From assembly GCA_036253055.1 (NCBI GenBank), contig GCA_036253055.1_4124.1: DNA of 64,000 nt; one strand, written 5' to 3'. The number at the start of each line of letters is the position of its first letter. The first letter of the stretch is position 1. Below the pieces are notes generated by a model, which worked only from the letters and a program-made list of their open reading frames with translations, made no database searches and was not told the origin of the DNA. The translations under genes and the position numbers were made by a program. This document shows, piece after piece, positions 11,128-60,581 of the stretch. The stretch comes from a phage.

Positions 11128-11730
11128 TTATACCTCAGTATAAAGCTTACAATAGCTTTCATCAAAATCACAAACACTTCTCAAGTACTGACACAGGTCA
11201 TTGAAAATATTTACATTTGATATATATACATTATCAAATTCTGTTCGTTGAAAGAATGTATGCATAGAATTTGTAATATATCGCATTGCATCTTCACGTC
11301 CCATAGTTATATCATTTGTGAACATTGCATCTTCATCAGTACTGATGTGTTCTATTTTAAATGATTTCATAAATGGAATACTCTTTCCTAGGGCATAACC
11401 ATCACCATATGATGCTTCTACTGCACCTTTAGAATAAAGGAATTGATATAAGTCCGAATCACGATTATAAAAAGTACGACATACGGAGGAACATAATTTA
11501 TTATCTATATGAAATAAAAATCTTTTAGCATTTTTGTCTAATACTATTCGCAATGCATCACTCTCTAGAAATATATCACCATCAAGCATAAATGAGAACT
11601 GTACTAATGCTTTTTCTAAATCCGCTCGTTTGTGATAAATCATTTCCTGCATATATATAATATCATTTGCTAATTTCTTAAAAAACAAATGCACATCTGC
11701 ACTACAACATTTATTTGCATTTATTGACAT
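11128..11730 (-). CDS. Hypothetical protein (200 aa), degenerate family-A core
   Basis: Core-like EDAMFTNDIT. Confidence 0.5.
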   Translation of the reverse strand: MSINANKCCSADVHLFFKKLANDIIYMQEMIYHKRADLEKALVQFSFMLDGDIFLESDALRIVLDKNAKRFLFHIDNKLCSSVCRTFYNRDSDLYQFLYSKGAVEASYGDGYALGKSIPFMKSFKIEHISTDEDAMFTNDITMGREDAMRYITNSMHTFFQRTEFDNVYISNVNIFNDLCQYLRSVCDFDESYCKLYTEV

Positions 11731-16063: not shown

Positions 16064-16555
16064 TCAACCCCTGTTAATACCGTTATCTACAGTTTTCTTT
16101 ACGTATTTGTAATCGAAATAGAAGTTCCCAGAACCAATACTTTTAAAGTACCACATAATTATAATAACATCAAGTACTTCATTATCATATACAGTACTTT
16201 GTTGGAAGTAATACTCTTCACTATCCCACGGACCTTCCAGTACTTCACTCGGAATTATAATGTCATTGGAATCGCTGTCAGTACTGTTGATGGTATCTGT
16301 ATCATTAATATAGACCATGTACTCATTATGCATATTAATGAAGCATTCATAATCATTAGGGTCGGTATCTAGTATGCACGTTTCTGTATCCAGTACGCAC
16401 GTTTCTGTATCTGAGCAGTCATTATAAAGGAGGTTATCCGGTACATAATATTGAGTACTTGTGTCTTTGAAAACACCGTAAACTGAACCTTCTTTTGCCA
16501 TATTCATGTACTCATGAATCTTCTTTGCTTTTTCCAATGAACTCTGTAATGTCAT
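16064..16555 (-). CDS. Family-A FQ-core paralog (MSLQSAL subgroup)
   Basis: Core SEEYYFQQSTV. Confidence 0.7.
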   Translation of the reverse strand: MTLQSSLEKAKKIHEYMNMAKEGSVYGVFKDTSTQYYVPDNLLYNDCSDTETCVLDTETCILDTDPNDYECFINMHNEYMVYINDTDTINSTDSDSNDIIIPSEVLEGPWDSEEYYFQQSTVYDNEVLDVIIIMWYFKSIGSGNFYFDYKYVKKTVDNGINRG

Positions 16556-16564
16556 TTTATAATC

Positions 16565-16924
16565 TCATATATTGAAATAATAATTATTCGTTCTTGATGG
16601 GGATGGATTAAATACGTTTTCTTTTTCAAATCTCTTCATTTCATTTTGCAAAGAAACCATTTCTTCAAATGTACAGGAGTACTTATTCTTATCAAACACT
16701 AATGCAGCCTGAAATAGTTCACCATCGTCCAGTACTGTATAATCTATAAGACTCTCAGATTCATAGTCATAGTCGTCATGTGATACATGAATAAATTTAA
16801 AACAAGAATCTTTGTAATGCATATATAAACTCAACTCATGTTCCGAGTCGCCCTTAATAAGATTACAGCACAAGTCCCATCCTTTAGGTAACTTATAATA
16901 GTACATAGAATAATCATATGTCAT
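16565..16924 (-). CDS. Family-A short-form paralog
   Basis: Core DDGELFQAALVFD. Confidence 0.65.
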   Translation of the reverse strand: MTYDYSMYYYKLPKGWDLCCNLIKGDSEHELSLYMHYKDSCFKFIHVSHDDYDYESESLIDYTVLDDGELFQAALVFDKNKYSCTFEEMVSLQNEMKRFEKENVFNPSPSRTNNYYFNI

Positions 16925-17277
16925 TCTTGAATTCCTAAATTGAATTTGTATTCTTGATTAATACTTGCATTGGGTTTATGCAAAGCAGCATACTCTTTCA
17001 TTTCATTTTGTATTGCAATAACTTCTTCAAATGTACACAAGTACTTCTTATCAAATACTAATGATTCTTGGAATAGTTCTGCGGTATCCATTAATGTATA
17101 GTCCGGCATATCTTGGTGTGGATACTGTAATGAACTGTAATCAATGAATGTAAATTTACCCTGAGTGTAATGAATATACTCATTTGCACTGTGCATTAAA
17201 TCACCTTTGTTTAAATTACAAAAGTACTGATAACTGTGCTTGAAAGTATGTACTGATATTAAAAAATCAAATTCCAT
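16921..17277 (-). CDS. Family-A short-form paralog
   Basis: Core DTAELFQESLVFD. Confidence 0.65.
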   Translation of the reverse strand: MEFDFLISVHTFKHSYQYFCNLNKGDLMHSANEYIHYTQGKFTFIDYSSLQYPHQDMPDYTLMDTAELFQESLVFDKKYLCTFEEVIAIQNEMKEYAALHKPNASINQEYKFNLGIQE

Positions 17278-17648
17278 CAGTACTCAACCTCTACATAAAT
17301 AGATTCAGGAAACTTAGTCATATAATCTTCTGGATAGTTCTGCATTACTTTGATCATTTCTGCCTGTGTAGCACGGACGTATTCAATTGGTGCTCCTGGT
17401 AAATTCCAGACAGTACTTTCCTGAAAGAATTCCTCTTCTGACAGTACTGTCAGATTTACAAAATCATTACGGTAATTTTTTGAATCATCATATGTGAAGA
17501 TTTTAAAAGACCCATTTTCATATAGTACAAGAACAAAATGGGAGAATTTTTGTAATGCACCACCAAGGCTTTCCACGACCGCATGATTCAGTGTACAGAT
17601 GACCTCTCTTTTCCTCATACCGAATTGAATTCTAATTTCTTTTTTCAT
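17277..17648 (-). CDS. Family-A short-form paralog
   Basis: Core SEEEFFQESTVWN; SD GAAGGAG. Confidence 0.65.
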   Translation of the reverse strand: MKKEIRIQFGMRKREVICTLNHAVVESLGGALQKFSHFVLVLYENGSFKIFTYDDSKNYRNDFVNLTVLSEEEFFQESTVWNLPGAPIEYVRATQAEMIKVMQNYPEDYMTKFPESIYVEVEY

Positions 17649-17806
17649 AAAATCTCCTTCAGATTAGTACTGAATTTGTACAGAATATTAGAACTGTATA
17701 CAGCCTCTGTATCTGTATCCATAATCAAATCACCTTTGTTTAAATTACAAAAGTACTGATAACTGTGCTTAAAAGAATGTACTGATATTAAAAAATCAAA
17801 TTCCAT
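17645..17806 (-). pseudogene. Truncated duplicate of the 5' end of gene 16921-17277
   Basis: 80-nt direct repeat (17198-17277 vs 17726-17805, 2 mismatches); ORF keeps first ~27 aa (MEFDFLISVH...) then diverges, 53 aa. Confidence 0.5.
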
Positions 17807-18183
17807 CACACTTCCCCTAGATTGAAATGATTACAAAAATCATCTTCACCAGTACTGCACCAGATATCTATACATTCCCTGTGAATACATTTAATTCTAC
17901 GCTGTAATTCAATCATCTCTTCTAATGTACAGATGTACTTCTTATCAAATACTAATGCCGCCTGAAACAGTGCAGCATCATCAAGTACTGTATAGTCCAA
18001 CATCTCGGTTGCTTTACCCCTAAACCCAGTACTAAAATCCATCAAATAAAAGTCAGCATTCCAGTACTTTAAAATCTTGTCCCTAGCGTAGTTTAAATCA
18101 CCCTTGTATAAGTTAGAGTGCGTAACTAACTCACCAGTGTACATCCATGTCCTTGCACAAAATTCATTATATTTTATTTCCAT
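17806..18183 (-). CDS. Family-A short-form paralog
   Basis: Core DDAALFQAALVFD; start moved to ATG 18183 (MEIKYNEF). Confidence 0.55.
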   Translation of the reverse strand: MEIKYNEFCARTWMYTGELVTHSNLYKGDLNYARDKILKYWNADFYLMDFSTGFRGKATEMLDYTVLDDAALFQAALVFDKKYICTLEEMIELQRRIKCIHRECIDIWCSTGEDDFCNHFNLGEV

Positions 18184-18381
18184 CTTAATCTCTACTATAA
18201 TTAATAAGGTAAACTCCAATATAAGGAGCACGTTCGGCGGCGGGGTATTTTTTGTTTAAGGAAACATGAACTGTACTCTGAAAAACACAATATAAAACTT
18301 TATATTAAACATATACCTTAGCATGTTTTTCAGCGGAAATTTTTTTGACCCCCCCCTGCGGCCTGTCAAAATGAAACGTCT

Positions 18382-18618
18382 CTATTTATTCAGCCTAGAA
18401 ACCTTGATTTCTTCAATCCTTTTCAACGCACAAAGCTTGCGACTCGTATTCCTGTACATATTCATTACACGCTGTAATGCATTGTCCTGATATTCCCTCA
18501 CTGTTGCACGCTCAGGATTGTGTACTAAACACGAACTCTTCAAAATCGAATCCATCATGAATTCAAAACCTTTCATCGTATATGGACTCATTGTTTCTGG
18601 TTCTTCAAACGTAATCAT
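18382..18618 (-). CDS. Hypothetical protein (78 aa)
   Basis: Track ORF. Confidence 0.45.
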   Translation of the reverse strand: MITFEEPETMSPYTMKGFEFMMDSILKSSCLVHNPERATVREYQDNALQRVMNMYRNTSRKLCALKRIEEIKVSRLNK

Positions 18619-52879: not shown

Positions 52880-53040
52880 GATTTAGCCGTCTATACTTCC
52901 AGACGTGTAACCATCTAGCCGTTTAGCCGTCCAAACGTCTAGCAATCCAGCCATCCAGAAATCTAGCCGTTTAGCCGTCTAGATGGATAGCCATCTTTAC
53001 TTCCAGACTTCTGGAGGGCTAGACATATCTACGTCCAAAA
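52880..53040. repeat. GC-richer block of short direct repeats (TAGCCGTTTAGCCGTC x2, CCATCCAG, TCCAGAC) with small hairpins
   Basis: Visible direct repeats; AGATGGatagCCATCT and CCAGActTCTGG palindromes. Confidence 0.5.
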
Positions 53041-53193
53041 TCCACCCAGGGTAACTACGCCCAAAATCCGTCAGTACTATACCATAGATCTATCTTTTGA
53101 AAGGGAGTATTCAGTACTGTCATCATAGCCCTCACTATGTTACCCTAGGAGGATGAAGACTATCATGTAGTACTGAATACTGTTAGAGGGAAT

Positions 53194-53213
53194 CCACCAG
53201 CACAAGCTGGTGG
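53194..53213. repeat. Perfect palindrome CCACCAGCacaaGCTGGTGG
   Basis: 8-bp arms; same CCACCAGC motif recurs at 47.24 kb, 35.30 kb and 40.12 kb. Confidence 0.6.
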
Positions 53214-53700
53214 CATAATGCTTTAGATTAAAATCAGTACTGACACCATTCTGTTAATATCAGTACTGTTATTACGATTTTCATATGAGGTTCAAAAAGA
53301 TGTACCACCACAGGAGGAACTATCTTTTCTGTACTGTCTCACGACAGGAGGTAGAGTAAATGAATTGTTCGCAGCAACTCATCACCCTATGTAGAACATT
53401 ATACAGTACTGAATCATAATGTCAATAGCTTTCTTTCATTATTCAGTACTGAAATCGTATAATCTGTATCGCTACAAAACTCATTATATCCCACAAATCC
53501 TATATGTCCCAACGTAAATTTCAACTTTCGAAGATCCAACTTTTATTTCATAGGTACTCCAAAATTTTTAGGATCGAGATTTAGGATGGAGTACTAACCA
53601 ACTTTTTGCTGGAGCCTCAAGGGGTAATTGAATTTTACCCCGAAGGGTAAAAGGGTAATTGAAATTAAGGTGAAAGTAATAATTCAGTACTAATCATTGC

Positions 53701-53729
53701 GTGATTACTTTTGATTACATTTGATGTAA
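53701..53729. repeat. Iteron cluster 1: TGATTAC-like repeats at exact 10-bp spacing (x3)
   Basis: TGATTACTTT TGATTACATT TGATGTAATT. Confidence 0.55.
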
Positions 53730-53867
53730 TTTGCAAAATGGAAAAGGAGCTTGGAAACTACAAAGTACGGCAGACTTCCTCTGCCTACTTAGTGGCATAT
53801 CAGTACTGCTACGTTCTTGATTAAACGTGAACATTCCTGTACTCTAGTACTCACTACTGATCACTAC

Positions 53868-53929
53868 AGTGATTATAAATGATTACTTAAATGTTTATAT
53901 ATGATTACTTATGACTACCTATGATTACG
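53868..53929. repeat. Iteron cluster 2: ATGATTAC(TT) repeats (x5, 10/22-bp spacing)
   Basis: gtgATTATaaATGATTACTT...ATGATTACTTATGACTACCTATGATTACgg. Confidence 0.55.
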
Positions 53930-53978
53930 GGGTTTAGCCTGGGGAGAATCCTAGTGATCGCATTTGTCCAGGCTGAAT

Positions 53979-54001
53979 TTTAACATATGCAACATATGTT
54001 A
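53979..54001. repeat. Perfect 10-bp-arm palindrome TTAACATATGcaaCATATGTTAA
   Basis: Directly downstream of the last family-C gene; possible operator or terminator. Confidence 0.55.
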
Positions 54002-59401: not shown

Positions 59402-60511
59402 ATGTTACCTTTTGGAAGAATGATTAGGTATGGAAATATTGTCCCTGGTCCTAAAAAAATAATTAAAGTTGGTGCTTCTACCCAAGGCCAATTCTTATTG
59501 ACTGATTCACATGATTTATATTACATAGGTAGAAATCAAGGTGGTGAATCTGGAAATGGTAATACCAACACGGTATCTTCATGGATATTAGTAAGTGCAG
59601 ATGTTTCTAATTTTTTCGTGGGTGATCGTACACTTGTTATTATTAAAAATGATAATACGATATGGACATCAGGTCAAACGTACTGGTTCTCATCTTCTAC
59701 AACTACTTCTTACAGTACTGTATTAGTTGAAAGAACTAATTGGTTTACCAATGCTATACCAGTAAGTGAAATTGCTAATATTGTATGTACAAATGGTTTA
59801 ATATTTGTACTTAGCACTAATTCAGTACTCTATGGTGCAGGAGATAATGGATATCGTGGTTCTTTGGGTATTGGTTCCTCATCAATTTACACATTAACTC
59901 AATGTGCTACGAACGTTCGTAAAGTAATGACCAATGCGAATGATAGTATGTATCTTACATTAGATAATAAGCTATATAGTTCTGGATGGAATAGTAGTGG
60001 GCAGCATGGTACGGGGAACCAAACACAAATTAACACTTGGGGATTGCGTAGTTCTGGTGTAATCGATGCAGCCATTGGTGGTAATGCATTAAATTACTAT
60101 AATGGTACATCATATTTCGTATGTGGTCAAACTCCAAACTTTCTTAGTTCAGGTACGACTACATTCCGTGCAGTTCCTGTAAGTACTTTGCCTAATAGTT
60201 CTCCATTGTTTATGACGAATTCACCTGCCTTAAATACTGCTACACAAATGGTAATTACTAGTACATATCAGAAGGGTGTTGGGGCGAACCGTGGTTTGGG
60301 ATTAAACAATTCTCAAACTGGTGCTATATATAGTGCTACCAATTTACAATTACCCGTTGAAGTTAGTGAGATTAGGGATGTTCTTTTTAGTGATGGTTTG
60401 ACATCGATATTAACCAAAAATGGAGATGTGTATAGTACTGGATCGTATTACGCCATTCCAGGTGCAATCGAGGATGTTGCAGTCTTTACTAAAATTGATT
60501 TACCAAAATAA
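59402..60511 (+). CDS. RCC1-like repeat protein, paralog 2
   Basis: Start at conserved MLPFGRMIRYGNIVPG (SD TAGGAGGGAA overlapping upstream stop); blade motifs. Confidence 0.7.
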   Translation: MLPFGRMIRYGNIVPGPKKIIKVGASTQGQFLLTDSHDLYYIGRNQGGESGNGNTNTVSSWILVSADVSNFFVGDRTLVIIKNDNTIWTSGQTYWFSSSTTTSYSTVLVERTNWFTNAIPVSEIANIVCTNGLIFVLSTNSVLYGAGDNGYRGSLGIGSSSIYTLTQCATNVRKVMTNANDSMYLTLDNKLYSSGWNSSGQHGTGNQTQINTWGLRSSGVIDAAIGGNALNYYNGTSYFVCGQTPNFLSSGTTTFRAVPVSTLPNSSPLFMTNSPALNTATQMVITSTYQKGVGANRGLGLNNSQTGAIYSATNLQLPVEVSEIRDVLFSDGLTSILTKNGDVYSTGSYYAIPGAIEDVAVFTKIDLPK

Positions 60512-60517
60512 CATAAT

Positions 60518-60546
60518 GCCAGTACACTGTACTGGCTTTCTTATTT
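60518..60546 (+). terminator. Intrinsic terminator (GCCAGTACactGTACTGGC + TTTCTTATTT)
   Basis: Perfect 8-bp stem and T-rich tail after stop of paralog 2. Confidence 0.7.
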
Positions 60547-60581
60547 GTATTAAATATAGTATAACAAATAAAGGAGGGAAT

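Follow-up and report, generated by a model that had tools for sequence, protein, structure and literature searches.

How does the 5' end of one gene come to stand twice, almost letter for letter, in a tandem gene array whose neighbouring members are far less alike? The question is raised by a direct repeat of about 80 nt in the window, that is, the whole stretch of 64,000 nucleotides of phage DNA analysed here. The original prediction, made from the sequence alone, answered it with a recent partial duplication that had left a truncated copy of a family-A gene. Comparison with related genomes points to a different history, in which a gene and part of its upstream neighbour were acquired from another phage lineage.

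The array and its direct repeat

The window derives from an Asteriusvirus, a Rak2-like jumbo coliphage, and the 3 kb round the repeat are 99.6% identical to Escherichia phage BF17. Thirty-six records match this 3-kb region, each being an Asteriusvirus, a jumbo phage of E. coli or Salmonella akin to 121Q and PBECO4. Every gene in this part of the window lies on the minus strand, which is called the sense strand below, and the sense order is A3 (17806-18183), a chimeric open reading frame (ORF) of 53 codons (17645-17806), gene B (17277-17648), A2 (16921-17277) and A1 (16565-16924). A1, A2 and A3 are family-A genes with full-length matches to phrog_15629. A2 is intact and is the gene whose 5' end is duplicated, while A3 lies upstream of the cassette formed by the chimeric tail and gene B and makes up the right flank of the corresponding empty site.

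These genes are part of a much longer series. Between 24 and 27910, on the minus strand, about 45 of some 55 consecutive genes encode the motif acidic-x-[FYWL]-F-Q-x-[S/hydrophobic], for instance as EEYYFQNS, EEEFFQES or GELFQAAL, and the PHROG families of this acidic-FQ array (15629, 13866, 9317, 12674 and 34600) cross-match one another. The array is one very large, lineage-restricted tandem superfamily. A profile search of 1.8 billion proteins recovered only 38 representatives of the wider family, which is confined to this lineage and has no informative relatives. No significant Pfam family was found for A1, A2, A3, B, the chimeric ORF or A4_364 (the gene of phage A4 discussed below), no Rfam match was found in the whole window, and the window contained no tRNA genes that could be detected. 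The acidic-FQ motif lies at the start of a helix in the structural model of B. Its resemblance to a TEV-type cleavage site is superficial, with no conservation at P1'.

A repeat search paired 17195-17279 with 17724-17808 as a direct repeat of 85 nt (96% identity, three mismatches, 529 nt from start to start), which is the only pair in a self-comparison of the window round the cassette. The segment common by descent is 82 nt long and 97.6% identical. Its first copy, R1 (17198-17279, minus strand), comprises the stop codon of gene B and the start codon and codons 1-27 of A2, and its second, R2 (17727-17808, minus strand), the stop codon of A3 and the start codon and first 27 codons of the chimeric ORF. 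The two mismatches within the 82 nt, at 17242 (G/A) and 17247 (T/A), define a "G..T" allele in R1 and an "A..A" allele in R2, and the third, at 17197/17726, lies just outside the junction J1 described below. The original prediction had set 17198-17277 against 17726-17805, as 80 nt with two mismatches; the repeat is there, but its register was wrong, as the pair so written differs at 51 of 80 positions and the pairing with 17727-17806 at 2 of 80. Three details of its description hold: the repeat covers the 5' end of gene 16921-17277; in the second copy, the ATG and about 27 codons are retained; and the TGA that closes the ORF of that copy overlaps the following ATG, that of B, as ATGA at 17645-17648.

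Among A1, A2 and A3, identity over the first 82 nt is no more than about 53-58%, and R1 and R2 are therefore not a case of ordinary similarity between paralogues. A partial tandem duplication of a family-A 5' end, with the copy drifting thereafter, would account for 82 nt at 97.6% identity that cover the start codon and 27 codons, and for an N-terminus that matches phrog_15629. The layout, however, is repeat-insert-repeat instead of unit-unit: the 444-nt insert occurs once per genome, and blastn, with a sensitivity of about 65-70% identity, finds no paralogue of it. Nor does the second copy simply diverge after codon 27, as had been supposed, but it switches in frame to the tail of another gene, similar to A4_364 at 88-90% nucleotide identity, which is not drifted family-A sequence. 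Gene B is likewise of a different family, phrog_13866, and is absent from about two-thirds of the relatives. The 53-aa product of the chimeric ORF aligns with phrog_15629 through residues 1-39 only (profile positions 1-39, E = 1.2e-9); over the whole profile of about 120 residues there is no match, and the FQ core and C-terminal helices are absent. A truncated family-A copy produced by duplication within the array is thus very improbable.

Two further observations concern the surroundings of these genes. The intergenic region upstream of A3 (18184-18381) is 96.5% identical even to phage A4, and the A4 genes next to its counterpart do not exceed 87% identity or cannot be aligned. It holds G-runs and C-runs, gives no Rfam match and has a predicted fold no better than that of shuffled sequence (z = -0.75), and it may be a conserved promoter or regulatory region of the array. 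On the other side, gene 16064-16555 contains a 21-nt tandem duplication (16362-16403, 86% identity) encoding a repeated TETC(V/I)LD heptapeptide, and its length varies among relatives, with 444 nt in SD-15 and SHEFM2K and 492-495 nt in others.

The chimeric ORF, gene B and the two junctions

In the chimeric ORF, codons 1-27 of A2 pass without a change of frame into 26 codons of an A4_364-like 3' tail. This remnant of the donor's upstream gene (17645-17726, minus strand) includes AAGGAG, the ribosome-binding site of gene B. The translations past the junction align end to end, A4_364 finishing in ...FQQDLIMDVDSAATYSSNVLCKEFQNSKILELLYIADCNILYKFCTHLKEIL, 121Q in ...NKGDLIMDTDTEVVYSSNVLCKEFQNSKMLELLCIADCNILYKFSTNLKEIL and the window in ...NKGDLIMDTDTEAVYSSNILYKFSTNLKEIL, each directly before the stop codon. 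In 121Q the ORF has 74 codons, and the tail of this long form, about the last 48 codons of 364, is 88-90% identical at the nucleotide level to the 364 tails of A4 and of the five independent contigs L019, L020, L022, L023 and L026. The window differs from 121Q by an in-frame deletion of 63 nt (21 codons) between two copies of TAAT(G/A)TTCTGT, of which the surviving copy marks the scar at 17680-17690 (minus strand, given in gene sense). The long form is retained by 121Q and by contigs L021 and L024, and it is the older one because its 63 extra nt are homologous to A4_364.

A 162-nt CDS is annotated for this ORF in BF17, G17, SHEFM2K and others. The "hypothetical protein" CDS of 162 or 225 nt in at least 11 GenBank phages is accordingly a chimeric remnant and no member of the family, which may be of use in annotation. 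That the ORF is open is largely automatic, the junction and the deletion being both in frame with about one chance in nine. The ORF does keep B's AAGGAG and the ATGA overlap; a role in translational coupling is possible. The "MDT..." that follows the junction was also considered as a relic of "LMDTAELFQ" in A2, left by an internal deletion of A2, and this was ruled out by the match of 88-90% of nucleotides to the A4_364 tail along its full length.

Gene B, the cargo of the cassette, encodes 123 aa and belongs to phrog_13866 (E = 5.6e-41, residues 2-118 against profile positions 1-112 of 115) and hence to the acidic-FQ superfamily. Its pN/pS of 0.1-0.6 between contexts is consistent with a gene under constraint. 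An AlphaFold2 model of medium confidence (pLDDT 73) predicts a beta-sheet followed by helices; similarities in the PDB are weak, and the model resembles uncharacterised proteins of RaK2 and PBECO4. B has neither a Pfam match nor a nuclease- or recombinase-like fold. Homologues of B make up only five clusters among 5.8 billion proteins, an IMG/VR scan returned only 121Q itself and one distant match, and every contig recovered from the B search carries the gene either in an A4-type context or in the cassette context. A 1-nt frameshift interrupts B at the FQ motif in two ENA metagenome contigs from different assemblies, L024 (3001-3294) and L025 (68-361). Apart from it, these contigs match the window at 99.7-99.8% identity, and the frameshift represents either a null allele that occurs in nature or a sequencing error common to both.

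The A4-type context shows what the cassette was taken from. Phage A4 has no short ORF; instead, A4_365, a B homologue with 95% nucleotide identity, is directly preceded by the full-length 192-aa A4_364. A full-length 364-like gene (192-198 aa) directly upstream of B was found only in A4-type genomes, namely A4 and contigs L019, L020, L022, L023 and L026, and B of the cassette is 94-97% identical to A4-type B. The family-A orthologue of A4 is A4_350, which adjoins the counterpart of 18184-18381, and the 364-B pair stands about 5.5 kb further along. The window has a collinear 364 orthologue of its own at that position (11128-11730, minus strand) with 24% amino acid identity to A4_364 over 191 aa, directly followed by a 366-like gene without B in between. 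Since A4-type tails and the tail in the cassette share 88-90% DNA identity and the window's own orthologue reaches only 24% at the protein level, the donor belonged to a foreign A4-like lineage and the transfer was not intragenomic. The direction from the A4 type to the cassette is fixed, as a full-length 364 gene cannot derive from a fragment. It speaks against the insertion set out below that the exact donor tail is present in no sampled genome, the best match being 90%.

Both junctions were located by a three-way comparison of a recipient (SD-15), a donor (A4) and the product (the window and 121Q), which bears out the earlier suggestion of a recombination junction inside the array. At J1 (17727-17731, minus strand), codon 26/27 of A2 is joined to the A4_364-like tail through the 5-nt microhomology GATTT (gene sense): recipient A2 reads ...AAAGGT GATTT AATGCAC, donor 364 ...CAACAG GATTT GATTATGGAT and the product ...AAAGGT GATTT GATTATGGAT. 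At J2 (17273-17279, minus strand), the end of B is joined to the start of A2 through the 7-nt microhomology TGATGGA (gene sense), which lies at the stop/start overlap: the donor end of B reads ...GAGTAC TGATGGA TTTAG, the recipient A3 end and A2 start ...GAAGTG TGATGGA ATTTG and the product ...GAGTAC TGATGGA ATTTG. The bases flanking these 5 and 7 nt differ between donor and recipient, with no longer homology at either joint. Empty sites are shorter by exactly 529 nt, and the interval in A2 from J2 to J1 is 82 nt, which is the duplicated stretch.

Probably, then, the cassette originated by microhomology-mediated ectopic insertion of an A4-like fragment, consisting of the 364 tail and B, into a family-A array of the PBECO4/SD-15 type, and was subsequently spread and lost by homologous recombination. 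The fragment would have carried the last 48 or so codons of 364 and the complete gene B, about 510 nt at first and 447 nt in the window. Synthesis or strand exchange would have left A2 at codon 27 through GATTT and entered the donor, and would have left the donor at the end of B through TGATGGA to return to the recipient where A2 begins; since this point precedes that of exit by 82 nt, the stretch between them is present twice. A duplication of this form is the signature of template switching, and two illegitimate crossovers during co-infection could equivalently have produced it, the two being alike in the sequence that they leave. By chance J1 would have fallen in frame and created a short chimeric ORF, originally of 74 codons and now of 53 in the window, which ends in ATGA on the start of B and keeps B's native ribosome-binding site, with the tight stop/start coupling of the operon presumably preserved on both sides. 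The 63-nt in-frame deletion between the 11-nt repeats would have come later, as would allele exchange between the repeat copies, and the 82-nt copies together with the homologous flanks would allow homologous recombination to delete the unit precisely or to transfer it to phages of another background.

The in-frame chimera and the repeat could both be obtained in another way, namely from an ancestral order A3 - A2x - ... - 364 - B - A2, where A2x is a full duplicate of A2, by a deletion from codon 27 of A2x to about codon 145 of 364, with the cassette-less phages later losing the rest through the repeats. Deletions between short repeats do occur at the locus, the 63-nt deletion being an example, and a divergent patch in R2 of 121Q and CRJP21 (see below) could then be taken as an old difference between paralogues. 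Such an intermediate, however, is present in no genome or contig, B is seen only in the A4-type or the cassette context, and the A4-type 364-B pair belongs about 5.5 kb away, where the window has the divergent 364 orthologue without B. R1 and R2 moreover cease to be homologous exactly at the upstream stop codon and at J1, which fits a template switch and not an old tandem paralogue, and J2, which is also a microhomology joint, would need a second independent event. Fusion by deletion is thus an unlikely origin of the chimeric ORF.

Gain, loss and exchange among related phages

Of about 36 related records, 13 have the 444 nt that separate the repeats, always as a single copy per genome; these 13 comprise 11 cassette phages (BF17, SHEFM2K, G17, phAPEC6, CRJP21, slurp01, Turkey3, 121Q, ECO103 4-12-1, EC22.5-2 and Sharanji), a duplicate record of 121Q and A4. 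Three metagenomic contigs, L021, L024 and L025, also contain the cassette. The 5' end of A2 was found in 35 records and is present twice in 12 of these, and about two-thirds of the relatives are without B and lack precisely the 529-nt unit. In E9.1, PBECO4, UB, SD-15_S21, WPEC3 and CMSTMSU, A3 is followed by A2 with a single copy of the repeat and exactly 529 nt fewer. A comparison with related genomes for copy-number variation had been proposed as a check, and the relatives do differ in content at precisely this point.

The same comparison bears on the concern, raised with the original prediction, that the repeat might be an assembly artefact. A repeat of this length is short enough to confuse short-read assemblers, which could collapse or mis-join it, and the Sharanji record ends inside R2. 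Against this, 11 phages sequenced independently and the metagenomic contigs L021, L024 and L025 all show an identical architecture, and an artefact would not yield lineage-specific variants such as the long and short forms of the chimeric ORF and the patch in R2; its probability is practically nil. The linear Sharanji record (GenBank OR545507) ends at 350079, about 47 nt past the cassette interior, which may be coincidental or may reflect a break made by the assembler at the repeat. The Sharanji paper reports a 20.7-kb direct terminal repeat. We found nothing in the literature on this cassette, the CBB and Sharanji papers dealing with paralogues, or with the 20.7-kb terminal repeat, in general terms only.

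Two phages illustrate how the unit moves. Across 16565-18228 (about 1.1 kb), Salmonella phage SD-15_S21 has the sequence of the window without 17198-17726 and is otherwise unchanged. It fits equally well as the product of a crossover between R1 and R2 in a window-like genome and as a pre-insertion site of the A..A type. In Turkey3, the flanking genes A1, A2 and A3 are about 80-90% identical to the window and resemble those of CMSTMSU and WPEC3, and the cassette is 99.7-100% identical to that of the window, with one differing position across 17198-17759, to which the window-like tract is roughly confined. The exact absence in SD-15 and the tract within divergent flanks in Turkey3 imply that the unit is gained and lost by homologous recombination, and much faster than the flanks diverge. 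A given cassette-less close relative such as SD-15 may have lost the unit or may never have had it.

A polymorphism of presence and absence with exact boundaries, and a cassette nearly unchanged in the divergent Turkey3 background, would also be expected of an active mobile element, be it a transposon, a homing-endonuclease cassette or an integrase-driven island, in which the repeat would be a target-site duplication or an attachment site. The sole complete gene of the unit is nevertheless B, a 123-aa member of the local acidic-FQ superfamily, with no Pfam match and no fold of a nuclease or recombinase type. No terminal inverted repeats bound the unit, the 82-nt duplication far exceeds the target duplications of transposons (2-15 bp), and a single insertion site is used in all genomes. 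The 529-nt unit thus has no transposase or recombinase gene, inverted repeats, short duplication or variety of sites by which a transposable element would be recognised, and we regard an active element as extremely improbable.

The alleles of the repeat sit less easily with the insertion by microhomology. Two alleles of the A2 5' end occur among the empty-site phages, G..T in UB and WPEC3 and A..A in PBECO4, SD-15 and E9.1. R1 of the window is the same 82 nt as the single copy of cassette-less UB and WPEC3, and R2 is 100% identical to that of cassette-less PBECO4 and SD-15_S21. Because R1 and R2 in the window hold two different alleles that already existed, further allele exchange must be assumed, and the near-identity of the two copies in the window is partly due to such later exchange. 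In 121Q and CRJP21, R2 differs from A2 at 12 of 82 positions. In the forms that look oldest, namely 121Q (L003 4791-4872), CRJP21 (L012 3231-3312), L021 and L024, R2 has a 28-nt patch with 10 substitutions, encoding VKGAPQYL in place of FKHSYQYF; searches with the peptide (tblastn) and with the patch itself (blastn) gave no source in any full-length A2 or other phage sequence. The patch may be the allele that the recipient originally had and that is now unsampled, or the outcome of a later local event. Since a one-step switch predicts identical copies, this patch calls for either an extra event or an unsampled recipient allele.

The duplication had also been described as recent, and this applies only in part. 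The insertion predates the split of 121Q, BF17 and Turkey3, the copies in 121Q and CRJP21 differ as just described, and the chimera tail is about 12% diverged from extant donors.

A further, rather speculative extension is that the tail and B behave as a passive cassette, in which the 82-nt repeats loop out a circle that could re-enter at the A2 5' end of any related phage. The conserved TGATG and ATGA overlaps of the 45-gene array might then serve as in-phase microhomology joints at which co-infecting jumbo phages exchange whole genes with translational coupling intact, and B might recently have swept through Asteriusviruses as an advantageous gene, for example against host defence.

Another change in the array was seen in Turkey3 (L008 1252-1778) and WPEC3 (L009 2869-3467), where a 186-nt ORF and a gene of 345-417 nt replace the last phrog_9317 gene. 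This replacement is a further rearrangement of the acidic-FQ array.

Relation to known processes and other repeats of the window

In the Hendrix/Hatfull model of phage mosaicism, illegitimate recombination joins sequences at identities of a few bases, often at gene boundaries, and homologous recombination in the flanks then spreads the joint. The cassette agrees with this in its joints at few bases and in a gene that is present or absent among close relatives. The case is unlike the usual one in that both parental arrangements and the product have been sampled, and unlike joints at gene boundaries in that one of its joints lies inside a gene, resulting in an in-frame chimeric ORF and an 82-nt target duplication. 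What we describe is ordinary phage mosaicism, a known process and not a new kind of system, in an unusually complete case.

Insertion-duplications by template switching are known from FoSTeS/MMBIR-type rearrangements and from copy-choice recombination in T4-like phages. The cassette resembles them as a foreign insert flanked by a duplication of the stretch that separates exit and re-entry, with 5-7 nt of microhomology at each switch. Here, however, the mechanism is deduced from the joints, two sequential break-joins would give the same product, and the R2 patch of 121Q and CRJP21 is not predicted by template switching.

As a single accessory gene in the same orientation as its neighbours, present or absent among close relatives, the cassette is also reminiscent of morons. 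Within 16400-18500, however, promoter- and terminator-like sites were not above the shuffled expectation, and none brackets B. Unlike a moron, B is tied into the operon by the stop/start overlaps ATGA and TGATG, its composition matches the surroundings, and it is a paralogue of neighbouring genes instead of an alien one. Arrays that evolve by unequal crossing-over are similar in being large and made of tandem paralogues, with direct repeats that permit precise loss; the gained unit here, in contrast, comes from another locus of another phage lineage and is no copy of a neighbour.

The genomes compared show directly the sequences of donor, recipient and product, the two junctions, the polymorphism in the presence of the unit, and the mosaic tracts. 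With the donor arrangement, the empty site, the primary product (the long form of the 121Q type) and the secondary products (the 63-nt deletion, allele swaps, precise loss and introgression into a divergent background) all sampled, the locus is a clean natural example of its kind. It shows how members are gained and lost in the very large arrays of small paralogues of Rak2-like jumbo phages.

Repeats were seen elsewhere in the window as well. Three copies of about 120 nt, 90-92% identical, stand at 60506-60627, 61716-61838 and 62937-63056, at the boundaries of tandem plus-strand genes (58191-64002) that encode 376-433 aa each; this region looks like another paralogous array with conserved gene ends. 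Between 34895 and 51690, many repeats of 41-78 nt with 88-95% identity lie among small genes and may be repeated regulatory or intergenic elements. After 33 kb the G+C content climbs from about 0.31 to about 0.38; at about 53000-54000 the sign of the GC skew is inverted and the genes pass from the minus to the plus strand.
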